32,000 nt of DNA. It comes from Candidatus Electronema halotolerans. GTDB taxonomy: Bacteria; Desulfobacterota; Desulfobulbia; Desulfobulbales; Desulfobulbaceae. The notes beneath the pieces were generated by a model, which saw only the letters and a list, made by a program, of their open reading frames with translations, did not search any database and was not told the origin of the DNA. The stretch covers positions 2,130,001 to 2,162,000 of the forward strand of contig OW818675.1 in the NCBI GenBank assembly GCA_942493095.1. Direction: 5' to 3'. This document shows, one piece after another, positions 5,378 to 32,000 of this stretch (the stretch's first letter is position 1; each line of letters opens with the position of its first letter). The position numbers and the translations under genes were made by a program.

Positions 5378-8031
5378 TGGCCCGCCTCCAGTAGTTCAGC
5401 AACAATTTTTGGCATGGCCTTGACCGCCTCTGGCAGCTTGTCCGCCATTGGCCCGCCAGCTTGGGCCATGTCCGGCCTGCCGCCGCCCTTGCCGCCAACT
5501 ATGGCCGCTGCCGCCTTGACAATGTCGCCAGCCTTAATTTTACCGGTCAAATCTTTGCTGACAATTGCGAGCAGGGCCGCCTTGCCATCCACCACGCCGC
5601 CGAGCAGAGCTGCTCCGCCACCCATTTTGTCGCGCACTTTGTCGCCGACCTCGCGCAGGGTCTTGGCTGAATCGAGCTTGAGCTGACCGCTGATCACCTT
5701 GATGCCGCTGACCTCAACTGCGCCTGCCAGCAAGGAATCCAAATCAGAAGACGCTGCCGCCGCGCTCAGGGCAGCCAGCTCCTTTTCCAGCTCCTTCTGC
5801 CGCTTGAGCAGGTTTGGCACCTTGACGAGCGCATCTTCAAAGGAGCCGGAAAGCATTTTGCCCAGCTCATCGGCCTGCGCAGCCAGCTTTTGCAGCCAGT
5901 CAATCGCTGCCGGGCCAGTGACCGCCTCAATCCGGCGCACCCCAGCGGCAATGCCGGTTTCGGAAATAATCTTGAACAGGCCGATGTCGCCGGTAGCTCC
6001 GGTGTGGGTGCCGCCGCAGAGTTCCTTGGAAAAGCCGGGAATGCTCACCACCCGCACCTCGTCGCCGTATTTCTCGCCAAACAGAGCAGTTGCGCCTTCA
6101 GCAATCGCCTGCTCTTTGGCCAGCACCGCTGTTTGCACCGGCGTGTTGCGGCGGATTTCCTGATTCACAAGCTGCTCAATGGCCCGGATTTCCTCCGGCG
6201 TGACCGGCGAAAAATGGGTGAAGTCAAAGCGGAGGCGGTCAGCGCGAACTAACGAGCCTGCCTGCTTGACATGGCTGCCAAGGACTTGCTTCATGGCTGC
6301 GTGGAGCAGATGAGTGGCCGTATGATTCAAGGCTGTGGCAGTGCGCTGCTCATCCACTTGCAAGATGACTTCTTGACCAGCACTCAGCACGCCTTGCGTG
6401 ATTGTGCCGCTGTGCAGCACCAGTCCCTCGGCAGCCGCCTTGACCGAATGCACAGTCAGCTTGCCACCCGGCCATGTCATCGTGCCGCTGTCGCCGACCT
6501 GTCCGCCGGATTCAGCGTAGAACGGGGTCTGCGGACAGAAAACCTGCACTTGCGCTCCAGCGGTCGCCCGGCTGATCAAGCTGCCTTGGTTGTCGAGAAT
6601 GCCCTCAGCCACACTCTCCGCACTTCGTTGTTTATAGCCAAGAAACTCGCTTTTCTTGCCCTGCTCCAGCAGATTGATCACGCCAGCAGAGAAATGATCC
6701 AAGTCCTTAGCTTTCCACGAGCGGCGCGACTGTTCACGCTGCTCCTGCATGGCCGCTTCAAAGCCTGCGTCATCTAAACCAATGCCATGCTCCAAGGCCA
6801 CATCACGGACAATATCTTTTGGAAATCCGTAGGTGTCATAGAGTTTGAAGATGAAATCGCCGTTGATCACTGGGCGTTCAGGCTGTTCACCCAAAACCCG
6901 TTGAATTTCCTCATCCAGCATGGCCAAGCCCTTGTCCAGCGTCTCGCCAAAGCGACTCTCCTCGTGATCCGTCACCTTGTCCAAGAGCTGGCTGGAGTCA
7001 GGCAGATGCGGATACGCCTCGCGCATGGTGCGCACCACTTCCCGGCAGACCTCGCCAAAGAAGGGGCCATTCAAGCCCAGTGTCCTGCCAAAGCGGATAG
7101 CCCGGCGCATGACCCGGCGGAGCACATAGCCCCGCCCTTCATTCGAGGGCAGGACTCCGTCCGCAACCAGAAAGGCCGCAGCGCGGGCATGATCGGCAAT
7201 GACCCGCATGGCCGTGTCATCAGCACGATTCTCGTGATATTTCTTGCCGGAAAGCCGCTCCACCGTGCTGATCAGCGGGGCAAAGACATCGCTGTCAAAG
7301 TTGTTGTATTTGCCTTGCAAGACTGCCGCCACCCGCTCCACGCCCATGCCGGTGTCAATCGAAGGCTTGGGCAGCGGGGTCAAAGTGCCGTCCAAGGAGC
7401 GGTAGAACTGCATGAAGACCAGATTCCACAGCTCAAGGAAGCGGTCACAGTCGCAGCCAATGGCACATTCCGGCCTGCCGCAGCCGTGCTCCGCGCCCTG
7501 ATCAAGGTGAATCTCAGAGCAGGGGCCGCAGGGGCCGGTGTCGCCCATTGCCCAGAAATTGTCTTTCTCGCCAAGGCGGACAATGCGGCCTTTGGGCAAA
7601 TCCTCAATCTGCTCCCAGAGTTCCTGCGCCTCGTCGTCGTCGCGAAAAATCGTGATCCAAAGCCGCTCTGGGCTGATAGCCAGTTCTTTGGTCAGAAATT
7701 CCCAGGCAAAGGCGATGGCCTCTTTCTTGAAATAATCGCCAAAGGAAAAATTGCCGAGCATCTCAAAGAAGGTATGGTGCCGGGCAGTATGGCCGACGTT
7801 TTCCAAGTCGTTGTGCTTGCCGCCAGCCCGCACACAGCGTTGGCAGGAGACCGCCCGGACGTACTCGCGGTGCTCCTCGCCCATGAAAATCCGCTTGAAC
7901 TGGAACATGCCCGCGTTGGTGAAAAGCAGGGTGGGATCGTCATGCGGGACGAGCGAGGATGATTCGACGATGGTATGCCCTTTGCTGGCAAAGTAGTTGA
8001 GAAATTTTTCTCGCAGCTGATTTCCAGTCAT
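5374..8031 (-). CDS. alaS: alanine--tRNA ligase
   Basis: Full-length AlaS similarity: FTNAGMxQFK, the editing-domain HxxxH motif (HTATHLLH), CGGTH and a C-terminal DHHA1 region. I place the start at internal ATG 8031 (MTGNQLREKFL...). The upstream 37 codons of the tracked ORF run into a palindromic repeat. Confidence 0.95.
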   Translation of the reverse strand: MTGNQLREKFLNYFASKGHTIVESSSLVPHDDPTLLFTNAGMFQFKRIFMGEEHREYVRAVSCQRCVRAGGKHNDLENVGHTARHHTFFEMLGNFSFGDYFKKEAIAFAWEFLTKELAISPERLWITIFRDDDEAQELWEQIEDLPKGRIVRLGEKDNFWAMGDTGPCGPCSEIHLDQGAEHGCGRPECAIGCDCDRFLELWNLVFMQFYRSLDGTLTPLPKPSIDTGMGVERVAAVLQGKYNNFDSDVFAPLISTVERLSGKKYHENRADDTAMRVIADHARAAAFLVADGVLPSNEGRGYVLRRVMRRAIRFGRTLGLNGPFFGEVCREVVRTMREAYPHLPDSSQLLDKVTDHEESRFGETLDKGLAMLDEEIQRVLGEQPERPVINGDFIFKLYDTYGFPKDIVRDVALEHGIGLDDAGFEAAMQEQREQSRRSWKAKDLDHFSAGVINLLEQGKKSEFLGYKQRSAESVAEGILDNQGSLISRATAGAQVQVFCPQTPFYAESGGQVGDSGTMTWPGGKLTVHSVKAAAEGLVLHSGTITQGVLSAGQEVILQVDEQRTATALNHTATHLLHAAMKQVLGSHVKQAGSLVRADRLRFDFTHFSPVTPEEIRAIEQLVNQEIRRNTPVQTAVLAKEQAIAEGATALFGEKYGDEVRVVSIPGFSKELCGGTHTGATGDIGLFKIISETGIAAGVRRIEAVTGPAAIDWLQKLAAQADELGKMLSGSFEDALVKVPNLLKRQKELEKELAALSAAAASSDLDSLLAGAVEVSGIKVISGQLKLDSAKTLREVGDKVRDKMGGGAALLGGVVDGKAALLAIVSKDLTGKIKAGDIVKAAAAIVGGKGGGRPDMAQAGGPMADKLPEAVKAMPKIVAELLEAGQ

Positions 8032-12055: not shown

Positions 12056-12843
12056 GTATCCATGCAGCATTTTTTGTACTTCTTCCCACTGCCGCAGGGA
12101 CAGGCATCGTTTCTGCCGATCTTGCGCTGGCCTCCCTTCTTTTTTTTCTCAGGGGCAAAATAATCAGCAAGCGAGAAACGAGGCGGGGGCGTGGAGCGTT
12201 TTTCCCGCAGGCCCAAATCCATTTCCACGTCCTCCAGATCACCATGAATGCTCACGTCAACGCAGTTTTCCTGATACGCCTGCTGAATGACCGGCATGGC
12301 CTCGACTGCCTTGAGATCGATCAGGCAGCTGATGAGCAATCCGTTGAATGTCGGGTCATTTTTTGCATACTGGGTCAGCGGTCGTTCTATGCGGTTGATG
12401 CAGTTCTGCCGGAGTTCAGGATGCTGCTGCGCCATAGCGACCAGCCCTTCCGCTATTGAGGTCCTTGAATACATGGGATGCTTTTCATCCGCAAGATAGT
12501 GCGCCATCGGACGGAAGGCAGGCTGACCGATCATGGCTAATGCTTTTGGTATATCCTCTTGCGCCCACTCGTCCTCCTCGTCCAGATCGAACCGCTCCAG
12601 CAGCGGCTGCACCGTCTCCGCCGCCCGAAGATTGCCAAGAATCCGCCAGGCATAAACTGGCGCATAGACGGTATCGTCTTCAGTATTTGCCCAGTTCAGT
12701 TTTTCATCCACAATCATGCGGAGCAGTTCCGGCAGATGCTCTTGGGTGATGCCCAGTTCGTTGTACTTGCTCCATTCATCACGTGGGTTCGGCCTGCCCA
12801 AGGTCAGCAGGGCGGCAACCGGTTCGGTGTATTGCGTGTCCAT
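12052..12843 (-). CDS. SEC-C metal-binding motif protein (DUF1186-like)
   Basis: C-terminal NDACPCGSGKKYKKCC is the SEC-C motif. The N-terminal alpha-helical body is recalled as DUF1186-like. The ATG at 12843 is preferred over the TTG at 12858. Confidence 0.7.
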   Translation of the reverse strand: MDTQYTEPVAALLTLGRPNPRDEWSKYNELGITQEHLPELLRMIVDEKLNWANTEDDTVYAPVYAWRILGNLRAAETVQPLLERFDLDEEDEWAQEDIPKALAMIGQPAFRPMAHYLADEKHPMYSRTSIAEGLVAMAQQHPELRQNCINRIERPLTQYAKNDPTFNGLLISCLIDLKAVEAMPVIQQAYQENCVDVSIHGDLEDVEMDLGLREKRSTPPPRFSLADYFAPEKKKKGGQRKIGRNDACPCGSGKKYKKCCMDT

Positions 12844-21370: not shown

Positions 21371-21451
21371 GAACAGCAACCACTTGAAACAATGCGCTGT
21401 TCTGTGTTATAAAGCATAGTTCACTGCCGCACAGGCAGCTTACTGAAAAAA

Positions 21452-22924: not shown

Positions 22925-23124
22925 TTTCCCGTCATTTCGGTGAATTGCAACAGGTCAAACATAGGGGCCTGACCTTACAAAATTAAGACTGACTGTTGCC
23001 ACCGGCTCGACGAGACCACTTCAACGACCAGCCGGGGCAGCACAGCGCACTTGATGATAAGGTGTCTGCCTGAGCATGCAACGCCTGGCAGATTTCCGCC
23101 CGTCCCTTGTTCCCTGCGCCCACC

Positions 23125-23173
23125 AAAATGAGCTGCCCGCCTCATTGTCCGGGCAGCCCTTCCTGAGTACAAT
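23125..23173 (+). promoter_or_regulatory. copy A of shared operator/promoter motif
   Basis: AAAATGAG-CTGCCCGC-CTCATTGTCC-N17-TACAAT. The palindrome AATGAG-N8-CTCATT overlaps a -35-like TTGTCC, and the -10-like TACAAT is at 23168-23173. Confidence 0.45.
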
Positions 23174-23214
23174 GCTCCCTCAAAATCCTGTCCGAATCCG
23201 AATCATGATTGCTC

Positions 23215-24057
23215 ATGACCGCCATTGCCTTTGCCCAGAGCCGCCCGCCCAATGCCATGCTGCTGGCAGGCAGCATCCTCTGCGTGCTGCTCCTGCTTGT
23301 CTGCCTGCTGGGCGCACGGCTGGCCCCATACGACCCGCTCGCCCTTGACCTGAGCCAGCAGCTAGCTCCGCCCTCTGCCACCCACCTCTGCGGCACCGAT
23401 CAGCTGGGCCGCTGCGTCCTGTCGCGGCTGCTCTGCGGAGCGCGGAACTCCTTAGCCTCTGCACTGGCCGCCGTGGGACTCAGCCTGAGCATCGGCCTGC
23501 CGCTCGGCTTTCTCGCCGGACTGAGCACCCGGCGCATCGACCGCCTGCTCATGGCCATCTGCGATGTGGTGCTGGCCTTCCCTTTCCTCATCCTCGCCTT
23601 GGCCCTGACCGCAGCTCTTGGCCCGTCCCTGCGCAGCCTGATCCTTGGCGCAGGACTGGCGGGCTGGGCGTGGCAGACCAAGTTCATCCGGGGCATGGCC
23701 CTTGATGCCAAGGACAAGGACTTTGTCCGCCAAGCCAAGGCAATGGGCCTGACCCGCCCTGCCCTGCTGCGCCGCTGCATCCTGCCCCAGCTCCTGCCGC
23801 CGCTCTTGGTCAGCACCTCCCTCAGCGCGGGCCGGATGATCGTGGTCATCTCCAGCCTCAGCTATCTGGGTCTGGGCATTCAGCCGCCCCAGCCGGAATG
23901 GGGCGTGATGCTGCGCGAGTCCATGCTGCATATTGCCGCTGCGCCGTGGCTGGCGATTGCTCCGGGCGCGGCAGCCAGCCTGTCAGTGCTGGCCTTCACC
24001 CTGCTCGGCGAGGGCTTGAAAGACTGGTTCCAGATACGGCCTGTTCATGCTGCTTGA
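23215..24057 (+). CDS. ABC transporter permease, NikC/DppC/OppC type
   Basis: N-terminal ...LAPYDP motif, six TM segments and an EAA-like loop (FVRQAKAMGLTRPALLRRCILPQ). The ATG at 23215 is preferred over the TTG at 23209. Confidence 0.85.
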   Translation: MTAIAFAQSRPPNAMLLAGSILCVLLLLVCLLGARLAPYDPLALDLSQQLAPPSATHLCGTDQLGRCVLSRLLCGARNSLASALAAVGLSLSIGLPLGFLAGLSTRRIDRLLMAICDVVLAFPFLILALALTAALGPSLRSLILGAGLAGWAWQTKFIRGMALDAKDKDFVRQAKAMGLTRPALLRRCILPQLLPPLLVSTSLSAGRMIVVISSLSYLGLGIQPPQPEWGVMLRESMLHIAAAPWLAIAPGAAASLSVLAFTLLGEGLKDWFQIRPVHAA

Positions 24058-24829
24058 AGTGGACAGGCTTTGCATCGGCTTGGGCAACGGGGCAAGGCGG
24101 ATTGTCGATGAGGTCAGCTTCAGGCTGGAGCGCGGCTCCTGCTTCGGCCTGCTGGGCGAGAGCGGCACTGGCAAGACCCTGCTCGCCTATGCCCTCTGCG
24201 GCCTGCTCAGTCCGCCGATGCAGGTGCTGGACGGCACAGTCCGCTTTGCTGGCGAGACGCTCCTGCCCGGCCCGCAGAGGAAGCTGGCCTGTCTGCGGGG
24301 CCGCCACATCTTCATGATGTTCCAGAGCGCGGCGGCGGCCCTCAATCCCTACCTGACCATTGGCAAACAGATTGCCGAAGCCTTGCAGACCACCCGGCGG
24401 CTCTCAGGCAGGGCGGCCTTGCGCGAGGCAGGCGCGCTGCTGGAGCGGGTCGGCCTGCGCAGCGAGCTGGTCAGTGCCCATCCCTTCCAACTGAGCGGCG
24501 GCATGCAGCAGCGGGTTCTGATCGCCATTGCCCTTGGCCTGCATCCGCAAGTCCTGATTGCCGACGAGCCAACCACCGGCCTGGACGCGCTCTCCTCCCT
24601 GCGCATTCTGGAGCTGCTCCAAAGCCTGAAGGAGGAGGGCATGGCCATCCTCTTCATTTCCCATGACCTGAAGGCCATTGCCCTGCTTGCTGACCAAGCT
24701 GGCGTGATGCGGCAAGGGCGGCTGGTCGAAACCGGCCCGCCTGCCCAGCTCCTGACTGCGCCCAAGCATCCCTGCACCCGTGAGCTGATGGAGGCGGTTC
24801 AGCGGCTGGAGGCCTGGCCGCCCGCATAG
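24047..24829 (+). CDS. ABC transporter ATP-binding protein, NikD/DppD type
   Basis: Walker A GESGTGKT, signature LSGGMQQR, Walker B LIADEPTTGLD and H-loop SHD. It overlaps the upstream permease by 11 nt. Confidence 0.9.
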   Translation: MLLEVDRLCIGLGNGARRIVDEVSFRLERGSCFGLLGESGTGKTLLAYALCGLLSPPMQVLDGTVRFAGETLLPGPQRKLACLRGRHIFMMFQSAAAALNPYLTIGKQIAEALQTTRRLSGRAALREAGALLERVGLRSELVSAHPFQLSGGMQQRVLIAIALGLHPQVLIADEPTTGLDALSSLRILELLQSLKEEGMAILFISHDLKAIALLADQAGVMRQGRLVETGPPAQLLTAPKHPCTRELMEAVQRLEAWPPA

Positions 24830-24847
24830 CCGGGCAGTATGCCCAGT

Positions 24848-24896
24848 AAAATGAGGCGGCTGCCTCATTGTCCGGGCGGCAGGAATATGGTTTATT
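24848..24896 (+). promoter_or_regulatory. copy B of shared operator/promoter motif
   Basis: AAAATGAG-GCGGCTGC-CTCATTGTCC-N17-TTTATT, preceded by the small hairpin GGGCA-GTA-TGCCC (24832-24844). Confidence 0.45.
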
Positions 24897-25046
24897 CTGG
24901 CAGTGTTCACTGCTGCTTTTTCCTTCTCTCCTTTGTTCAGCCCAGAACCATCGGGAAAGGCAGCAGCTCCGGGGCTGTTGCAGCCTCGGAGGGTTTCTCT
25001 TTGCAAGGGGGCAATCAAGCAGCCAAGACGCTGAACGCTGACCAAC

Positions 25047-26006
25047 ATGACAACAAGGCATGCCGCCATTCTCTTTCTCAAGCGTCTGGCCCGGATGGGC
25101 GGCATCCTGATCGGGGTGTCGCTGCTGACCTTTGTCCTGCTGGAGCTGGTGCCCGGCGATGCCGCAGACCTCCTCCTGAGCAGCCAGATGCAGACCGCCT
25201 CGCCTGCGCAGGCCGCCGCCCTTCGGCAGGAGCTGGCTCTGGACGCGCCCCTGCCGCTGCGCTATCTGCGCTGGCTGGGCCGGGCAGCGGTGCTGGACTT
25301 CGGCACCTCCATCCGCAGCGGCGAGCCGGTCAGCCGGGAAATACTCCGCTGCCTGCCTGTGACCATGACCCTTGCCCTGCTCACCTTCAGCTTTGCCGTG
25401 ACTGTCTCCGTGCTGGGCGGCATCATTGCGGCCCTGTTCGAGAAGCGTCTGCCGGACAGAGGCCACCGCCTGTTCGCCATTCTTGCCGTCTCCATTCCTG
25501 ACTACTGGCTGGGCCTGATGCTGCTCCTGCTCTTTGCCCTCAAGCTGGGCTGGCTGCCCGTGCTCGGCGGCAGCGGCCCTGAAGCCTTCATCCTGCCAGT
25601 GCTGGCCCTGGGCCTGTCTGCCGCTGCCGCCGAGGGCCGGGTCTTCCGGGCCAGCATCATTGCGACCTTGCAGCAGGACTGGGTGCTCTTTGCCCGCGCC
25701 AAGGGACTGCACCCGGCCAAAGTATGGCTGCGGCACGTGCTCCGCCCTGCCGCCCTGCCCATGCTCTCGGTCTGGGGCATGCAGCTAGGCCATCTGCTCG
25801 GCGGGGCCGTGGTGATTGAATCGGTCTTCTCCTTGCCCGGCTTAGGCAAGCTGGCAGCGGATGCGGTGCTCCAGCGCGACCTGCCCATGATTCAAGGCGC
25901 GGTGCTGGCCATGACCTGCTTCTTTATCCTTGCAAGCGGGGCGATGGAGAGCATCCATGCCCTGCTTGCCCCCAAGAATCGGCTGGCAATGGCTGACATG
26001 CCCTGA
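25047..26006 (+). CDS. ABC transporter permease, NikB/DppB/OppB type
   Basis: FLKRLARMGGILIGVSLLTFVLLELVPGD N-terminus and an EAA loop (FARAKGLHPAKVWLRHVLRPA) typical of DppB/NikB. Confidence 0.85.
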   Translation: MTTRHAAILFLKRLARMGGILIGVSLLTFVLLELVPGDAADLLLSSQMQTASPAQAAALRQELALDAPLPLRYLRWLGRAAVLDFGTSIRSGEPVSREILRCLPVTMTLALLTFSFAVTVSVLGGIIAALFEKRLPDRGHRLFAILAVSIPDYWLGLMLLLLFALKLGWLPVLGGSGPEAFILPVLALGLSAAAAEGRVFRASIIATLQQDWVLFARAKGLHPAKVWLRHVLRPAALPMLSVWGMQLGHLLGGAVVIESVFSLPGLGKLAADAVLQRDLPMIQGAVLAMTCFFILASGAMESIHALLAPKNRLAMADMP

Positions 26007-26030
26007 CCAGCACAACTCATTGCAAAAAGA

Positions 26031-28046
26031 ATGATGAGGAACACAATCAAGCTGTCAGTGACAGCGGCGGCAGTGCTGCTGGCCGGGCCAGGCATGGCTC
26101 AGGATCAGCAGGAAACAGTGCGCACGCTCGATGAGGTGGTGGTCACGGCGACCAAGACTGAGCGGGAGCTGAAAGAGATTCCCACCAATATGGCCGTGGT
26201 CACGGCAGAGGAGGTTGAGCGGATTCAGCCGACCGACGCGATGGACCTGCTCCGCCATGTGCCGGGTCTGGTGCTGGACGGCATGGGCGGCAGCAAAGCC
26301 TCGTTCTATGCGGGCGCGCGCGGCATTCAGCCCTCCTCACGCGGCATGCTGATCATGATGGACGGGATTGAAATGAATGATCCCAGCAACTACATCTCAG
26401 CGGACAGCCTGCCTTTGGACTCCATCGAGCGGATTGAGGTGATCAAGACCCCGGCCTCAGTGCTCTACGGCCCGGCAGCGGTCGGTGGGGTGATCAACAT
26501 TATCACCAAGAAGCCGGTCAACCCGCTGGAAGGCAGTGCCAGCGTCGGCTATGGCTCCTTTGACCGCAAAGAGGCGACAGCGACAGTCAGCGGCCTGCTG
26601 GAGAATGGCTTCACTTACGGCCTCAACTACCGGGGCTTGGACACGGACGGCTATCGGGACAACAACTGGCGGCAGCAGAATGCCTTCACCCCGCGCCTCG
26701 GCTATCTCTCCGACGCAGTCGAGTTTGATGTCTTTGCCAATATTGTTGACGGCGAATACGCCTTCCCCGGCGGCCTGCCCTTGGCCACCTACAAGGATGA
26801 CCCGACCAAGTCGCTCCAGCCGGACCGCGAAGGCAATTCCACCACTGCCAACATCGGCTCGACTCTGAACTGGACCTTGGATGCGAGCAACATCCTCAAG
26901 TTCAAGACCTCCTACCGCAACAACGACTGGGAGACTGAGGACTACGGCTTCTTCTTCAAGGGCGATGACTACAATGTCTGGACAGGCGAGGCCGCCTATC
27001 AGAACCTGTCCGTGATCAACGGGATGAAGAACTCGCTCCTGCTTGGCACCGAATACCGGAGCCTGAACAACTCGCCTTCCATGTACATGGACGACCAGCA
27101 CGGCTCCATGCTCCTGAGTCAGGCCGAGATTGAGGAGCAGATCGCTGGTTTCTTTATTCAGGATGAGCTGTCGCCGGTCAGCAACCTGATGCTCAACCTT
27201 GGCGTGCGCTATGATCAGATTGACACGGACTTCAGCAACAAGCTCAAGCAGGAGGCCAGCTTTGACAACTCGCACGACAAATGGAGTCCGCGTCTCGGCC
27301 TGACCTACACAGTCGCGCCGGAGCTGTCCTTGTTCGCCAACTACTCGCAGGGCATCCGCTCGGTCAATCTGGCCCGGCCCGCCTTCCAGCTCAAGGGCAA
27401 CGTAAACCCGGAGACTGAGGAGAGCATTGAGGGCGGCATCCGGGGTCTGCTCGGCGGGGTGCTGGAATACAACGCGGCCTTGTTCCAAGTCACGACTGAG
27501 GACAAGATCATCCAGAAAGACCGCTATCTCTATGAGAACGCGGGCGAAGCCGAGTCCAAAGGCTTTGAGCTGGCTCTGAGCCGCGACCTGCCCGGCGGCT
27601 GTTATGCCTCGGCAGACTACACGTACATCAATGCTGAGTTCACCGACTACACCACTTCATCCACCACGCCGGAAGAGGCGGTCTCCTACAACGGCAAGCG
27701 CGTGCCCTTGGTGCCGGAGAACATCTTCGGCCTGACCTTGGGCTGGAAGAATCCGGTCTATGGCCACCTGAGCGGTTCGCTTCGTTACGTTGACGAGAAG
27801 TACATTGACAACGCCAACACCCTGAGCTTGGATGACTATGTGGTCGTGGATGCCAAGTATGTTGTCGGTCTGGGCGCGCTCCTGCCCGGCGCGGAGCCGT
27901 GGCAGTTCAGTCTGGCAGTCAACAACCTCTTTGATGAGACCTATGCTGAGTACGGCGAGGCGGACGGCGGCCTGTACGTGCCGGGGCCGGTCGCTTTCCC
28001 GGCAGATGGCGTGTCGGTGTTCGGCAGCATCAGCTATAAGTTCTGA
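26031..28046 (+). CDS. TonB-dependent outer-membrane receptor
   Basis: Signal peptide, TonB-box-like LDEVVVTAT, plug motifs (IPTNMAVVTAEE, DLLRHVPGL, IERIEVIKTPASVLYG) and a beta-barrel ending in terminal ...SISYKF. Confidence 0.9.
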   Translation: MMRNTIKLSVTAAAVLLAGPGMAQDQQETVRTLDEVVVTATKTERELKEIPTNMAVVTAEEVERIQPTDAMDLLRHVPGLVLDGMGGSKASFYAGARGIQPSSRGMLIMMDGIEMNDPSNYISADSLPLDSIERIEVIKTPASVLYGPAAVGGVINIITKKPVNPLEGSASVGYGSFDRKEATATVSGLLENGFTYGLNYRGLDTDGYRDNNWRQQNAFTPRLGYLSDAVEFDVFANIVDGEYAFPGGLPLATYKDDPTKSLQPDREGNSTTANIGSTLNWTLDASNILKFKTSYRNNDWETEDYGFFFKGDDYNVWTGEAAYQNLSVINGMKNSLLLGTEYRSLNNSPSMYMDDQHGSMLLSQAEIEEQIAGFFIQDELSPVSNLMLNLGVRYDQIDTDFSNKLKQEASFDNSHDKWSPRLGLTYTVAPELSLFANYSQGIRSVNLARPAFQLKGNVNPETEESIEGGIRGLLGGVLEYNAALFQVTTEDKIIQKDRYLYENAGEAESKGFELALSRDLPGGCYASADYTYINAEFTDYTTSSTTPEEAVSYNGKRVPLVPENIFGLTLGWKNPVYGHLSGSLRYVDEKYIDNANTLSLDDYVVVDAKYVVGLGALLPGAEPWQFSLAVNNLFDETYAEYGEADGGLYVPGPVAFPADGVSVFGSISYKF

Positions 28047-28096
28047 GGCGGGGGCAGTGACAGGAACCTGTCGCTCTCAGAGATAGGAGGCATGAA

Positions 28097-28251
28097 CGGT
28101 TCGTACATGCAGACATGTACGAACCGCGCAAGGAGAGATGAACGGGCCGCACATGTCTCCTTGTGCTGCCCAGTACATGGAGACATGTGCTGGCAGGCTT
28201 TGTTTGGCACGAACAACCCTCTGCAGGGGCGAAAAATTTTTCGTCCCTACG
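28097..28251. repeat. cluster of long perfect hairpins
   Basis: CGGTTCGTACATG-caga-CATGTACGAACCG (28097-28126, 13-bp stem). GCACATGTCTCC...GGAGACATGTGC (28149-28190, 12-bp stem). AGGGGCGAAAAATTTTTCGTCCCT (28225-28248, 12-bp palindrome with one G-T). Confidence 0.7.
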
Positions 28252-28274
28252 CCTGCCGCGCTGCTTGCACTCCA

Positions 28275-28412
28275 GTGTGACGAACGGTTGCACCAGAGTG
28301 CAACGGAAACTTCCACTCTCGTGCAACGCATCATAGTACTCTCGTGCGACGGTGGATACTTCGAGAGTGCAACGGCAGATACTTCTCTCGTGCAAGTTGC
28401 GGTTCCACTCCA
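28275..28412. repeat. six degenerate 23-nt tandem direct repeats
   Basis: GTGCAAC-like heads occur at 28275 (GTGTGAC), 28298, 28321, 28344 (GTGCGAC), 28367 and 28390 (GTGCAAG), spaced exactly 23 nt. Consensus is about GTGCAACGG-N7-ACTTC/CTCTC. Confidence 0.7.
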
Positions 28413-28471
28413 GTGGAAGCAGCGGGCGCACTATCCACGCCATCCTGTCCTTTCGGTCGCAGGGAGAAATC

Positions 28472-29665
28472 TCAGAGCCGGGACGAAGGAGATTCCTCCC
28501 GTTGGTCGGAATGACGGAGATATTTGTGGGCGTAGGCATAAATAAGCGCGTGACTCCACGGCCAGTATTTGTCCTGTCTCTCCAGTAGACCGTAATTAAC
28601 CAACTCATGCAACGCCTTGCGTGCCCTGTATTCATCGCCATCAAGATGAGCAGTTACCCGCTCATAGGTCAACCACGCACCTCCTCCCCACATAAAAGTA
28701 CCCCAATCGGCTTCACCCCATTTCACCGGCGTTCCCATCAATCCCAGCGCAAGTCGGGCATCATCACTGACCTGCCCTATGCTGCGCCGCAGAAGCAGGA
28801 CGGCATTCTCCTCCTCGTCCTCACCCAGCTCCTTGAACGGCTCCTGCTCCAGCCAGCGCAAGTAGTCTGCCGTATCTTCGCACATATTTCTGATATAGCA
28901 ACCGGCAATCCGCAGACCAACCGGCCAGCCGCCCAGTATCTTGCAGATGCCCTGTACGCTCTCGTCATCCGCCGCCGCACCGCTGTGCAGCCGGAAAACC
29001 TCTGCCGCAAACTGCTCCTCCAGCGGCCTGACCTGGAGCAGCTCGCCCCGCGCATCCGACCGCTTCCGGCTGGTGATCAGCACCCCGCAGCCGCCGCGCA
29101 CTTTGAGCAGAGCAGACAGGTCATCAGCCTCCTCTGCCCCGTCCAAAATCAGCAGCACCTGCTTGCCAGCCAGCAGACGGCGGGCCGCGTCCGGGCTGAC
29201 ATCCTGCTGCTGCTCGTCATAGCTGCGCACGACATGGGCAAGGGCCTCTTCAGCAGTATGCTTGCCATAAAAGGAGTAGAAGATGATGCCGTCCGGGAAG
29301 CGGTCAGGGGCTTCCTTGCCGGATGCCAGCGTCCAGACGGCCTGCGCTGCCAGAGCGGTCTTGCCCATGCCGCCCGGCCCGCAGAGCGTGACTGCCTTGC
29401 CCGGCTGGAGCAACGGCAGCAGCTCCTCCAGCACCGCATCCCTGCCCCGGAAGTGCTCGGCCAAAGGAGGCCGTTGCAGGGGAATGCCTTGGGCGGTGCG
29501 CGGGTAATGGTGGTGATGCTTTTCATAGCGGACATTGCCGGTTTGACTGAAGACGTTGCCGTTGCCCGTTACATGCTGTGTGTTGTTCTCCTGCTTGCCA
29601 ATGGCATTGTCTCCCTGAGCACTGTTCTGCTCGCCGCTGCCGGTGTTGGTGAAGGTGTCGCCCAT
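28472..29665 (-). CDS. NB-ARC / STAND P-loop NTPase
   Basis: Walker A GPGGMGKT, Walker B VLLILDGAEE, sensor-like ITSR and a GLPL-like GGWPVGL motif. The N-terminus is a Gly/Asn/Gln-rich tail with HHHH. The start at 29665 has GGAGGA upstream. The last about 30 codons read into a hairpin repeat. Confidence 0.75.
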   Translation of the reverse strand: MGDTFTNTGSGEQNSAQGDNAIGKQENNTQHVTGNGNVFSQTGNVRYEKHHHHYPRTAQGIPLQRPPLAEHFRGRDAVLEELLPLLQPGKAVTLCGPGGMGKTALAAQAVWTLASGKEAPDRFPDGIIFYSFYGKHTAEEALAHVVRSYDEQQQDVSPDAARRLLAGKQVLLILDGAEEADDLSALLKVRGGCGVLITSRKRSDARGELLQVRPLEEQFAAEVFRLHSGAAADDESVQGICKILGGWPVGLRIAGCYIRNMCEDTADYLRWLEQEPFKELGEDEEENAVLLLRRSIGQVSDDARLALGLMGTPVKWGEADWGTFMWGGGAWLTYERVTAHLDGDEYRARKALHELVNYGLLERQDKYWPWSHALIYAYAHKYLRHSDQREESPSSRL

Positions 29666-29775
29666 GTCTCCTCCATCAGGTTGAATGTGTTCAGCAATGC
29701 TCCCCAGCATACCCGAAGAGCAGCAGCTTGCGCACTGGAAATCTGCCGCCGGGCAAGGCAGGCGATATGCCCGGC

Positions 29776-29824
29776 AAAATGAGACCTCCGCCCTATTGTC
29801 CGGGCAGCATCATTCTGCTATGCT
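29776..29824 (+). promoter_or_regulatory. copy C of shared operator/promoter motif
   Basis: AAAATGAG-ACCTCCGC-CCTATTGTCC-N17-TATGCT, preceded by the hairpin CCGGGCA...TGCCCGG (29749-29774). Confidence 0.45.
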
Positions 29825-29952
29825 TGCTTGAATTGGTAAATCCAGCGGTCCCCCACGGCACTGCCGCCGCTGGCCAATAAAACAGCTTACCCCGGCGGTC
29901 TGCAATTCCGCAGGCCGCTGCCTTTAAAACCTTTCAACACAAGGTGATTGAA

Positions 29953-30150
29953 ATGGCTGTACACGCAGAAGTTCTCAAGCCCGAAGCATCCTACAACGCT
30001 GCTCCTGATGCCTGCTGCCACGGCGGCGCTTATCAGGCTGCCCCCTGCGCCTGCTGTCATGGCGGCGCATACCAAGCTGCTCCTGATGCCTGCTGTCATG
30101 GCGGTGCCTATCAGGCTGCTCCGGCTGCCTGCTGCCACGGCGGCGAGTAA
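29953..30150 (+). CDS. RiPP precursor peptide with four tandem ACCHGG cassettes
   Basis: AAGGTG lies 6 nt upstream of the ATG. Sequence: MAVHAEVLKPEASYNA-(APDACCHGGAYQA)(APCACCHGGAYQA)(APDACCHGGAYQA)(APAACCHGGE). The cassettes differ mostly by synonymous codons. It sits directly upstream of the E1-like and YcaO genes. Confidence 0.75.
   Translation: MAVHAEVLKPEASYNAAPDACCHGGAYQAAPCACCHGGAYQAAPDACCHGGAYQAAPAACCHGGE
30001..30147 (+). repeat. 3.75 x 39-nt in-frame tandem repeat (coding cassettes)
   Basis: gctcctgatgcctgctgccacggcggcgcttatcaggct, gccccctgcgcctgctgtcatggcggcgcataccaagct, gctcctgatgcctgctgtcatggcggtgcctatcaggct, gctccggctgcctgctgccacggcggcgag. Confidence 0.9.
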
Positions 30151-30152
30151 TC

Positions 30153-30207
30153 GTTTCAGGTTGACCTGAAACAAGAAACGGGAGCCTGCCTGGAGCAGGT
30201 TCCCGTT
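30153..30207 (+). promoter_or_regulatory. two stable stem-loops immediately after the precursor stop (possible processing or attenuation site)
   Basis: GTTTCAGG-ttga-CCTGAAAC (30153-30172, 8 bp). AACGGGAGCCTGC-ctgga-GCAGGTTCCCGTT (30177-30207, 13 bp with one G-T). No U-tract follows. Confidence 0.45.
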
Positions 30208-30228
30208 GCCAAAAAGAGGTGCGCAAAG

Positions 30229-30315
30229 ATGCTGGCTGGCAGCAGAAGTTCTCAAGCCCGAGTCTTTGGCTGTACCGCATCCTGCGCCTGCCACCTCTGC
30301 CCCCGCAGAGAATGA
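30229..30315 (+). CDS. possible second short Cys/His-rich precursor (28 aa) or decayed paralogue of the first
   Basis: AGAGGTG lies 7 nt upstream of the ATG. Sequence MLAGSRSSQARVFGCTASCACHLCPRRE. Nucleotide homology to the first precursor covers ATG..GCAGAAGTTCTCAAGCCCGA and GCATCCTGCGCCTGCCAC, but the leader part is shifted by 1 nt. Confidence 0.35.
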   Translation: MLAGSRSSQARVFGCTASCACHLCPRRE

Positions 30316-30376
30316 CAGGAGGCCATCTGACGATGGCCTGCACCTCTCCCCTCAGCATACTCCCCCCGAACTCATT

Positions 30377-31279
30377 ATGCAAAGCACTTTTTTGCAGCTG
30401 CGCCGCTGCCGCCGGATACCGGTGCAGGAAAATAAAGTCCTGCTCAAGTCGGCGGACAAGTCGCTGGCTCTTGCTGCGGACAATATTCATAACCTGCTGG
30501 ACAGCCTGCTGCCTCTGCTGAACGGAACCTCCACGGAAAAAGAAGTGCTGGCCGCTCTGGTGCCGGAACTGAAGGAGGATGCGGCAGAGGTGCTCCGGCT
30601 CTTGGGCAAGGAAGGCTTCTTGGAGACTGGCGCGGAACCGGCCAAGCAGCTGGCTCAGTCCCTGATTATCCTGATCAGCACTGGGCGGCTGGGTGAGACC
30701 ATGTCCCGGCATCTGCGTCAATCCGGTGCGGAGCAGGTCGAGGAGATCGATGCCGAGAGCGCGGCGGGCGGGCACCTGCCTGACTCGCTGCAACAGGCAG
30801 CTATGGTTGTAGTCTGCACCGACCTGCCAAGGCCCGACCTCTGCGAGGCAGTCAACAAGGCGGCCTTGACCCTCAAGCTGCCGTGGCTGCTGGTTCAGGC
30901 TGACGGCAGAGACGGCTGGGTTGGGCCGCTGTTCATTCCCGGCGAGACCGGCTGCTACGACTGCCTGCGCCAACGACTGCTCTCCTGTTCAGTCAGCCCG
31001 GAGATCGACCAAGCCATCCATGCTGCCGCCCTGCGCCAGCCCTTCACGGAGAGTCTGGAACTGCTGCCGCCCTTCCTTGACCTGCTGGCAGCAATGGCTG
31101 CGCTCGAAGCCATCCGCCACCTGAGCGCAGTCAGCCCGCCGCTCACTTACAAGACCCAGATTCTGCTTGACTGCATCAGCGGCATTTCCCGCCGCGATGT
31201 GCTGCATCGGATTCCCCGTTGCCCAAGCTGCTCAACCAGCAGCGAGCAGGTCTCCCCAATCCAGCCTTTCAGCGGGTGA
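30377..31279 (+). CDS. E1-like (ThiF/Ocin-ThiF-like) cyclodehydratase partner with N-terminal RRE-like leader-binding region
   Basis: The N-terminus (VQENKVLLKS...LLDSLLPLLNGTSTEKEVLAAL) resembles a PqqD-like RRE. A central degenerate Rossmann-like segment is present, plus PGETGCYDCL and RCPSC Cys pairs typical of E1-like TOMM 'C' proteins. The frame stays open back to TTG 30206. Confidence 0.7.
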   Translation: MQSTFLQLRRCRRIPVQENKVLLKSADKSLALAADNIHNLLDSLLPLLNGTSTEKEVLAALVPELKEDAAEVLRLLGKEGFLETGAEPAKQLAQSLIILISTGRLGETMSRHLRQSGAEQVEEIDAESAAGGHLPDSLQQAAMVVVCTDLPRPDLCEAVNKAALTLKLPWLLVQADGRDGWVGPLFIPGETGCYDCLRQRLLSCSVSPEIDQAIHAAALRQPFTESLELLPPFLDLLAAMAALEAIRHLSAVSPPLTYKTQILLDCISGISRRDVLHRIPRCPSCSTSSEQVSPIQPFSG

Positions 31280-31284
31280 CTGCC

Positions 31285-32000
31285 ATGATGAGCGATTTGC
31301 AGATTGCCCCGTGGCAGCGCGGGCAGGAAACGATCTTGGATGCGTTTGTCAGCTCCCGCTTGGGGCCGGTGAAGAAGCTGCAGGAGCTGACCCGCGAGCC
31401 GGACGCGCCGGATATCTTCAGCTATGTGTCCGAGGTCTGCGACCGGACTCAGTTCCATTTTCAGCAGGGCGGCAAGGTCAGCACCGGCATTGGCATCACC
31501 CGCTTTCATGCCCGCACTGCCGCCATCGGTGAATGCTTGGAACGCTACGCGGCCAGCATGTATGACCGGGACAAGGATGTCATCCTCGCCACCTGGAAGG
31601 AAATGATTGGGCAGGGGTTGCGGACTGCCCACCCGGAGGACTTCGGCCTTTACTCGGAAGCCCAGTATCAACGGCATACGTATCTCAACCGCTTCACTGA
31701 GAACACCCGCATTGGCTGGGCCAAGGCCGTCTGCCTGACTGACAGCAATGCGGAGGTCTGGCTGCCTGCCGCCTTCGTCTTTCTGCCCTATCAGTACATG
31801 GCAGGCGAGACCCAAATCTCTTCGCAAATCTCCACTGGCCTGTCCGCCGCATTTGACTTGGACACGGCTGTCATGGGCGGCATCTGTGAGATTGTGGAGC
31901 GGGAAGCGGTGATGCTGACCTGGCTCCACCGCCTGCCCTGCCCAGAGCTGCGCTTCAGCCCGGACTGCTGGTTCAGCGAAGTGTTCCAGCAACGCTTTGC
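31285..32000 (+). CDS. YcaO-domain cyclodehydratase (N-terminal 238 aa; continues beyond the window)
   Basis: My translation gives MMSDLQIAPWQRG...GGKVSTGIGITRFHARTAAIGECLERYAAS...SSQISTGLSAAFDLDTAVMGGICEIVEREAVMLTW. This matches the YcaO signature blocks (G-x-G..A...A.GE.lERY and S.GlA......A...g..E..ERDa). It is absent from the ORF track because it is open at the window end. Confidence 0.8.
   Translation, partial: MMSDLQIAPWQRGQETILDAFVSSRLGPVKKLQELTREPDAPDIFSYVSEVCDRTQFHFQQGGKVSTGIGITRFHARTAAIGECLERYAASMYDRDKDVILATWKEMIGQGLRTAHPEDFGLYSEAQYQRHTYLNRFTENTRIGWAKAVCLTDSNAEVWLPAAFVFLPYQYMAGETQISSQISTGLSAAFDLDTAVMGGICEIVEREAVMLTWLHRLPCPELRFSPDCWFSEVFQQRF

Follow-up and report, generated by a model that had tools for sequence, protein, structure and literature searches.

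A conserved, probable promoter-operator element upstream of transporter and peptide genes in Candidatus Electronema halotolerans and related Desulfobulbaceae

The lux box, a 20-bp dyad, has its centre at -42.5 and overlaps the -35 hexamer, and GerE-type activators such as LuxR and TraR bind dyads of 18-20 bp centred near -42.5, likewise overlapping -35. In the class of NarL, DevR and VraR, multiple sites per promoter are common. Here we describe an element that occurs three times, as sites A, B and C, in a 32-kb window of Candidatus (Ca.) Electronema halotolerans, a cable bacterium. The window is the whole stretch of DNA analysed; loci fetched for comparison carry L-numbers. Cable bacteria conduct electricity through periplasmic fibres with a nickel cofactor and, to our knowledge, have been neither grown in pure culture nor genetically manipulated yet. 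Nickel acquisition, trafficking and regulation in these organisms is an open question, on which the regulon proposed here bears. A conserved promoter-operator that is easily scanned also provides a computational handle on genes that are switched together. A literature search found no mention of this dyad or of such a regulon in cable bacteria.

In kind, the element would be a regulon-defining bacterial promoter-operator of the ordinary sort; in its content it is undescribed. We propose that, at each site, a sigma-70-type promoter is joined to a conserved module that binds one lineage-specific regulator. With one regulator module at each promoter, the genes behind the sites would form one regulon. 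A shared promoter and common regulation are very likely from the sequence comparisons. That the module serves a single lineage-specific regulator, and so delimits one regulon, is probable.

The element shares several traits with lux and tra boxes: an 18-20-bp dyad over -35 with a predicted centre at about -42 to -44, a candidate reader with a GerE-type helix-turn-helix, and one box before several operons. Unlike these systems, the candidate here is a phosphorylation-controlled response regulator and not an acyl-homoserine-lactone receptor, and the box sequence is unrelated. The dyad is also asymmetric and is accompanied by a second conserved dyad about 21 bp upstream and by an invariant GGG in the spacer. 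VraR, NarL and DevR (DosR) are the closest solved relatives of the candidate, a HisKA_3-type kinase is found in both cases, and the distal element here is GGG-N-CCC-like, as in the DevR box. The NarL heptamers (TACYYMT, 7-2-7) are not present. We know of no NarL-class system that controls TonB-dependent metal uptake.

Fur, Zur and NikR regulons resemble the present one in content (TonB-dependent receptors, ExbBD-TonB, ABC importers and metallophore synthesis) and in an operator that overlaps the promoter. They differ in box sequence and spacing, and no such repressor is linked to the sites described here; the linked membrane kinase and response regulator would sense the periplasm and not the cytoplasm. 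The NrsSR, CusSR, CzcSR and PmrBA systems likewise have a His-rich periplasmic sensor kinase encoded beside metal transporter genes. However, their regulators are of the OmpR family, bind direct repeats and mostly induce efflux under metal excess, whereas the candidate here is of the NarL family, with dyad sites and mostly uptake genes.

Three sites in the window and the anatomy of the element

A search with AAAATGAG-N8-CTCATTGTCCGGGC, allowing up to three mismatches, matched the window only at 23125, 24848 and 29776, each time on the + strand and between genes. The chance expectation for this 30-nt pattern in the window was 0.00 (100 dinucleotide-preserving shuffles). A repeat search independently grouped the same three stretches as one 65-nt family (D2), and a soft weight-matrix scan of the 32 kb found no copy beyond A, B and C. 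The pattern, repeat and matrix scans thus bear out the three aligned intergenic sites of the preliminary description. Its promoter geometry is also as described: TTGTCC begins at 23145, 24868 and 29796, the spacer measures 17 nt, and the hexamers TACAAT, TTTATT and TATGCT end at 23173, 24896 and 29824. The parts of the sites are as follows.

23107-23173, + strand: site A module, with a degenerate upstream box at 23107-23122 and the core at 23125-23154
23127-23146, + strand: dyad AATGAG-N8-CTCATT of site A
23145-23150 and 23168-23173, + strand: -35-like TTGTCC and -10-like TACAAT of site A; predicted start near 23180
24830-24896, + strand: site B module, with the upstream box CCGGGCAGTATGCCCA at 24830-24845, the core at 24848-24877 and the dyad at 24850-24869
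24868-24873 and 24888-24896, + strand: TTGTCC, and TGG followed by TTTATT, of site B; predicted start near 24903
29758-29824, + strand: site C module, with the upstream box at 29758-29773, the core at 29776-29805 and the dyad at 29778-29797
29796-29801 and 29816-29824, + strand: TTGTCC, and TGC followed by TATGCT, of site C; predicted start near 29831

Site B has the second-highest matrix score (72.3), and the right arm of site C reads CCTATT.

The distribution of the element was determined by scanning 185,579 species-representative genomes with AAAATGAG-N8-CYYATTGTCCGGGC. Seven stretches matched, all from Ca. Electrothrix, Ca. Electronema or metagenome-assembled genomes of Desulfobulbaceae, with one or two matches per contig. 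When the right arm was left free, a scan of metagenomes returned eight stretches; five of these share flanking features, and three look like chance or unrelated matches. The matches in L013 and L008/L011 (67% GC, soil) consist of the 30-mer only, without upstream box, -10 or gene context, and were treated as chance or unrelated. The exact 30-nt core in L008/L011, including CGCCTCATT, lies downstream of a cupin gene and may be a palindrome that arose by chance. All fetched loci were then searched with a weight matrix built with heavy pseudocounts, which recovered divergent copies. The final set, drawn from Electronema, Electrothrix and related Desulfobulbaceae, comprises 33 non-redundant copies in 291 kb; 17 of them match neither search pattern (unforced copies).

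Conserved across the copies are AAATGAG, C-Y-Y-ATTG, GGG and an upstream GGGCA…CCCA box. The following counts refer to the 17 unforced copies and are numbered from the first A of AAAATGAG. In the left arm, A1-A3, G5, A6 and G7 are each present in all 17 copies and T4 in 16. In the right arm, C16 is found in 17 copies and T17 in 14, position 18 is C or T, and A19, T20, T21 and G22 are again complete. Positions 23-24 are free; C25 follows in 13 copies and G26-G28 in 16 or 17. The upstream box is marked by G-15 and G-14 (16 copies), T-11 and T-10 (14), C-6 (16) and C-5 (17). Downstream, T43 occurs in 14 copies, and position 44 is A or T in every one.

The 20-bp dyad AATGAG-N8-CYYATT has 96.6% complementary cells in the inner arms, the right arm being the weaker one. 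Over the 33 copies, the inverted repeat of the preliminary description keeps a near-invariant left arm (AAATGAG), but the right arm is C-Y-Y-ATT and not a strict CTCATT. Similarly, only TTG of the -35-like TTGTCC is invariant; the next three bases are free and are followed by the invariant GGG. The upstream GGGCA..TGCCC, ascribed before to B and C, is real and shared by them, but it belongs to most copies and is not specific to these two. In most copies this distal box reads CCGGGCA-N3-5-(T/G)CCCA, with site A lacking the first half, and its centre precedes that of the dyad by about 21.5 bp, or two helical turns.

The promoter part was assessed in the same set. T[AT]nnnT occurs at position 43 +/- 1, 17 +/- 1 nt after TTG, in 24 of the 33 copies against a background of 6.7%, and TG stands ahead of the hexamer, at positions 40-41, in 19. 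A -35-like and a -10-like hexamer spaced by 17 +/- 1 nt, as in sigma-70-type promoters, are thus usual among the copies. A simple sigma-70 consensus scanner called site A (TTGTCC-17-TACAAT, 9/12). Inspection by eye revealed no GGAAC/CGT-type or GG-N10-GC elements in register, as would be expected of extracytoplasmic-function sigma or sigma-54 promoters. The sigma-70 reading is favoured because the AT-rich hexamer with TG-n fits it.

All copies with an identifiable downstream gene are oriented towards it, and where start codons are clear the distance from the end of the hexamer is 28-150 nt. The 28-nt gap of L015 includes a GAGGAG ribosome-binding site, so that a further promoter would not fit there. 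UBA5173 (L006) has a back-to-back pair of copies separated by 130 nt, one facing exbB-exbD-tonB and one facing a permease-receptor operon; this is a divergent-promoter layout. For En. aureum, transcriptomes have been published, as cited in PMC13047784.

From upstream to downstream, each site would be read as a distal dyad (at about -65), a proximal dyad (at about -43.5) whose last two bases begin the -35 TTG, three free bases and GGG. The 17-nt spacer, counted from the -35 and often ending in TG-n, would lead to T[A/T]nnnT. The palindrome centre had been placed near -43 before; the arithmetic is right and gives -43.5 if the start lies 7 nt after the hexamer. A dimer of the phosphorylated regulator would bind the proximal dyad and activate from a class-II position, as LuxR/TraR-type proteins do. 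The distal dyad, two helical turns upstream, could take a second dimer.

Genes behind the element and the candidate regulator

The genes behind the three sites were assigned with Pfam, which agreed with the nikC-like/nikD-like, nikB-like/TonB receptor and precursor genes named earlier for A, B and C.

23215-24829, + strand: target operon of A, with an OppC/NikC-like permease (23215-24057) and an ABC ATPase (24047-24829); Pfam BPD_transp_1, OppC_N, ABC_tran
25047-28046, + strand: target operon of B, with an OppB/NikB-like permease (25047-26006) and a TonB-dependent receptor (26031-28046); Pfam
29953-32000, + strand: target operon of C, with a precursor peptide (29953-30150), a ThiF-like gene (30377-31279) and a YcaO gene from 31285 past the end of the window
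29953-32000 in the window, 8627-16296 in L016 (L016 offset 21750), + strand: peptide cluster, from the gene table of the source locus

By position, the genes behind the element in the window and in related genomes are the following. TonB-dependent receptors follow it at site B and in L001, L007, L018 (19232), L020 and L027 (9058), and exbB-exbD-tonB in L006 and L014. Nik/Opp-type ABC genes are found behind sites A and B and in L006, L018 (8839) and L027 (2644). L002 contributes an importer of the FecCD, Peripla_BP_2 and ATPase type and, at 6728, a major facilitator superfamily (MFS) gene. Secreted and cytoplasmic FmdE-domain proteins are encoded behind copies in L001 (3480), L003 and L010. Peptide precursors follow site C and its counterparts in L004 and L018 (12046); the L018 precursor, at 12224-12418, is 91% identical. 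A NicO/RcnA gene stands behind the motif in all seven rcnA loci examined, L015, L025 (E. aarhusensis), L026 (En. aureum), L027 (E. antwerpensis), L028, L029 and L030. In the Electrothrix loci L025 and L027 rcnA lies within clusters of importer genes, and in L028-L030 cbiM/nikM-cbiQ-ATPase genes are found downstream of rcnA on the same strand, with a porin-like gene in between in L030. The upstream genes of the window are housekeeping genes (alaS, fabF, queH, a Mur ligase gene, minC and thrC), and none of them carries the motif in the matrix scan. Copies and gene positions taken together support the shared promoter/operator and single regulon claimed in the preliminary description, and extend it to rcnA, exbBD-tonB, FecCD importers and FmdE.

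The element stands at orthologous positions in En. aureum and UBA5173, before permB (L006 5879, L018 8839) and before the precursor gene (L004 1818, L018 12046). Distant receptor orthologues of 55-41% identity (L022-L024) have no motif copy. This rules out a motif that travels with the receptor gene, and indicates that the element belongs to the regulatory system of the lineage and not to the gene.

Part of this gene set is known. A Nik/Opp/Dpp-type operon with an adjacent undefined TonB-dependent transporter, as well as rcnA, have been catalogued as cable-specific by Hiralal et al. 2024 (PMC11247825), who describe both RcnA and the Nik/Opp-plus-receptor system as cable-specific acquisitions. 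In E. yaqonensis YB6 the two are absent together (PMC12093952). The catalogued genes are exactly those that bear the motif here. The earlier study (PMC11247825) dealt with genes and phylogeny, and reported no promoter, operator, regulator or ThiF/YcaO link. The motif ties these genes, previously only catalogued, to the TonB machinery, FmdE and the Cys-rich YcaO peptide cluster.

A candidate regulator was found beside the element. In L003 and L012 (Electronema sp. JC and a relative), genes for a HAMP-HisKA_3 kinase and a response regulator with receiver and GerE domains end just upstream of a motif copy. In L028, L029 and L030 the order is kinase (not in L029), regulator, motif, NicO/RcnA and cbiM/nikM. 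The regulator gene is thus directly beside a motif copy in all five loci inspected, from four lineages. The two-component system adjoins two different motif-bearing targets (rcnA, and an FmdE gene or leader), so it is the motif with which it is associated. In L029 a further copy lies ahead of the regulator gene itself, which suggests autoregulation. Orthologues of the response regulator are 73-95% identical across Electronema and Electrothrix, and are encoded in En. halotolerans (CAK8714218.1) and En. aureum. The protein scores below every NCBIfam equivalog cut-off and is therefore not an orthologue of any named system. In the kinase, two membrane segments flank a periplasmic sensor domain of about 150 residues. 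H91, H95, H108, H112, H113, H158 and H162 are invariant there across sequences of 53-92% identity, with HxxxH-type spacings, and a periplasmic metal site in this His-rich domain is plausible.

Based on this adjacency, we give even chances to the NarL/LuxR-family response regulator, with its HAMP-HisKA_3 kinase, being the protein that binds the element. That it acts as an activator is suggested by analogy and falls just short of this. A periplasmic transition metal is the likely signal, and nickel or cobalt is tentatively put forward; these two metals are favoured by NicO/RcnA, by the Nik/Opp-type systems, by the NikMQO of relatives and by the need of cable bacteria for nickel. Two other candidates for the regulator were rejected. 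The STAND NTPase encoded beside site C is an insert specific to En. halotolerans and has no DNA-binding domain. The LysR genes near rcnA in L026 and L030 are only 33% identical and no orthologues, which makes them weak candidates.

Taken further, the motif might be the cis-signature of a dedicated nickel-supply regulon, run by the His-rich kinase and the NarL-type regulator with four co-ordinated arms; as a whole, this extension is speculative and rather unlikely. TonB-dependent receptors with ExbBD-TonB would take up nickel across the outer membrane, and Nik/Opp-type and FecCD-type systems (NikMQO in relatives) would import it across the inner membrane. RcnA would return nickel to the periplasm, and the YcaO-modified peptide with its Cys-Cys-His repeat would be made as a nickel carrier. 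If true, the regulon would serve the conductive fibres as supply line for their nickel cofactor, and its two-component system would be the first of the NarL class shown to control the acquisition of metal through TonB-dependent uptake. If the signal is another metal or cue, an ordinary but useful regulon definition would still be obtained. In either case, a named sensor kinase and response regulator can be examined in vitro without cultivating the organism.

Several observations weigh against the promoter-plus-module reading and its NarL-type regulator. The sigma-70 scanner rejects B and C, which stay under its threshold because their hexamers are TTTATT and TATGCT; B (TTTATT) and several other copies lack the usual A at position 2 of the hexamer. 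If the start lies 7 nt past the hexamer, the dyad centre of -43.5 misses the classic -41.5/-42.5 by 1-2 bp. The dyad itself, with an invariant left arm, a C-Y-Y right arm and a conserved CGC on one side of the N8 spacer, has an uncommon form for a simple dimer site. Pattern-selected copies were used to seed the matrix, and copies in related genomes are not phylogenetically independent. Regulator and motif are adjacent in Electronema-type and related contigs, and in E. aarhusensis the regulator and rcnA lie on different contigs. The element bound by the regulator could be the proximal dyad or the GGGCA…CCCA box, which is like the GGGAC…GTCCC of DevR. Finally, an annotated exporter gene, rcnA, that shares its promoter type with importers is odd under simple metal-starvation logic. 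A purely detoxifying role of RcnA seems unlikely; the importer-type promoter, and nikMQO directly downstream on the same strand in relatives, suggest that it is not a simple efflux pump.

Competing readings of the dyad

The alternative with most weight, although unlikely, keeps the same promoters and takes the module as the operator of a repressor. A metal-loaded Fur-, Zur- or NikR-like protein, or the response regulator itself, would then occlude the -35 when metal is plentiful. The overlap of the dyad with the -35 TTG and the invariant GGG within the spacer fit such an operator, and the promoters look fairly competent unaided, with TTG invariant and TG-n in 19 of 33 copies. The gene set, too, is the classic one: receptors, the TonB system and ABC importers are classically controlled by metal-dependent repressors. 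However, the sequence is unlike the known boxes. The Fur box is an AT-rich 9-1-9 element, and NikR binds GTATGA-N16-TCATAC or, in deltaproteobacteria, GTGTTAC-N13/14-GTAACAC. In a comparison by eye with consensus sequences from the literature, none of the Fur, Zur, NikR and CsoR/RcnR boxes agreed with the 6-8-6 layout and its GC-rich spacer of 8 nt. In addition, no copy was seen to have a gene of the Fur, NikR, ArsR or CsoR type beside it, compared to five sightings of the two-component system. The conserved elements also extend to about -72, beyond the need of a simple -35 occluder.

Much less probable is a class-II site for an activator of the CRP/FNR family, with the two-component system as a mere neighbour or second input. 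The dyad centre and the -10 are 31.5 bp apart, compared to 29.5 bp in class-II sites of CRP and NtcA, no gene of the family lies next to any locus examined (gene tables), and the literature search returned no such site. In favour of this reading is the sequence itself. AAATGAG-N8-CTCATT(T/G) parallels in register the CRP site AAATGTGA-N6-TCACATTT and the NtcA site TGTA-N8-TACA. The 4-8-4 layout TGAG-N8-CTCA with flanking A/T tracts has the geometry of the family, and the -35 overlap is as in its class-II sites.

The palindrome could also act as a hairpin in RNA or single-stranded DNA, GCCCAG-n-AAAATGAG-N8-CTCATTGTCCGGGC, serving processing, attenuation or stability of read-through transcripts. 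B, C and several other copies lie directly downstream of a co-directional gene, 92% of the helix cells can pair, and on the + strand a G-U pair survives the C-to-T change that is common in the right arm. This degree of pairing is, however, what column composition gives: for the ungapped alignment of 29 copies the column-shuffle control gave 92.2%, and 370 of 500 shuffles reached the observed value, with one compensatory cell in 290. A second possible helix, pairing the N8 spacer with the downstream GGGCAGC and perfect in site A, was rejected with 66.8% paired cells compared to 68% in shuffles. The element is therefore conserved as sequence and not as structure, which is what a protein-binding site predicts. 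In the divergent L006 pair and at the 28-nt gap of L015, the motif is left untranscribed or no space remains for a further promoter, and no T-run follows the palindrome. Rfam at its gathering threshold gave no match at the motif, and a terminator scan placed no intrinsic terminator at the motif itself, the terminator-like hairpins lying downstream, in the leader of B. A hairpin function is thus very improbable.

Least credible of all is a constitutive promoter cassette or dispersed repeat spread by duplication with no common regulator, since the multiple copies at one locus (three within 7 kb here and three within 17 kb of L027) and the similarity over about 85 bp are set against conservation of specific columns only, with neighbours that vary freely across genera of 43-59% GC, which points to selection on function and not recent copying, against a low and gene-proximal copy number (three in 32 kb, one or two strict matches per representative genome) that speaks against the repeat considered in the preliminary description, against placement before one coherent functional class and never before housekeeping genes in the sequence examined, and against the lack of terminal repeats and target duplications in what was seen.

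Leader RNA and surroundings of the sites

A conserved structured leader follows the motif promoter at six loci of GC-richer, Electronema-type lineages, including site B.

24897-25004, + strand: leader of the B transcript, with a conserved structured RNA core (24914-25004) and a terminator-like hairpin (24967-24991) followed by a T-run
Copies of the leader RNA: window 24897-25004; L002 5290-5383 (- strand); L003 5042-5133; L012 3691-3782 (- strand); L005 6538-6628; L006 6056-6138

The core contains …CTTCGAGTCAGC…GAA…, a purine-rich stretch and then a GC-rich hairpin with compensatory changes. Rfam gave no match to a known riboswitch even at E<5, and a covariance model of the leader found only its six training loci in 307 kb. 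No open reading frame follows the leader in L005 and L012, and in L002 it lies between two motif copies. These two full copies, at 2559 and 2861 of the oriented locus and 302 nt apart, are upstream of one FecCD-type operon, and the first appears to drive only the leader RNA. The leader could be an attenuator, a riboswitch-like leader or a small RNA of the regulon. A further hairpin with a T-run (24898-24915) is located at the predicted start of promoter B, 68 nt past the stop codon of the ATPase gene. It could terminate transcripts from promoter A; RNAs begun at B would lack the 5' half of the stem and would read through.

The source locus (L016) has the order thrC, site A with permease and ATPase, site B with permease and receptor, a STAND NTPase gene on the - strand, and site C with the peptide operon. 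The TonB-dependent receptor of B is 100% identical to a Ca. Electronema halotolerans protein, encoded on a 3.2-Mb contig. The 65-aa precursor consists of MAVHAEVLKPEASYN and four AAPxACCHGGAYQ repeats. With its four ACCHGG repeats it matched no NCBIfam model and no specific Pfam family. Followed past the end of the window, operon C (L016) comprises the precursor, ThiF-like, YcaO, MFS and nitroreductase-like genes, a second receptor and an SBP_bac_5 binding protein. No paper combining cable bacteria and YcaO was found in the literature search, and this ThiF/YcaO cluster for a Cys-rich peptide appears to be undescribed for cable bacteria. A decayed second precursor-like start (…AEVLKPESL…) is present downstream of the first, near 30240 in the window and at 12501-12563 in En. 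aureum (L018). In the Electrothrix-like L020 (3057-5683), a radical-SAM/SPASM enzyme and an MFS gene precede the orthologous receptor in place of the ThiF/YcaO set, which suggests a different modified peptide at the same uptake locus.

Directly upstream of thrC, at 21419-21448, Rfam gave a lone weak match to CRISPR-DR4 (36.4 bits, cut-off 35); there is no array, and a hairpin due to chance is the probable explanation. The stretch 28046-29710, which separates the receptor gene from site C, holds a truncated STAND NTPase gene (NACHT/NB-ARC, about 400 aa, - strand), whose product has no DNA-binding or TPR part. The insert is absent from the orthologous loci of UBA5173 and En. aureum. It also includes non-coding DNA, about 430 nt long, in which there is a weak tandem repeat of 23 nt (28316-28395). 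Full-length STAND regulators of the BTAD-MalT-like type, 1,060 aa long, adjoin the distant receptor orthologues in L023 and L024.

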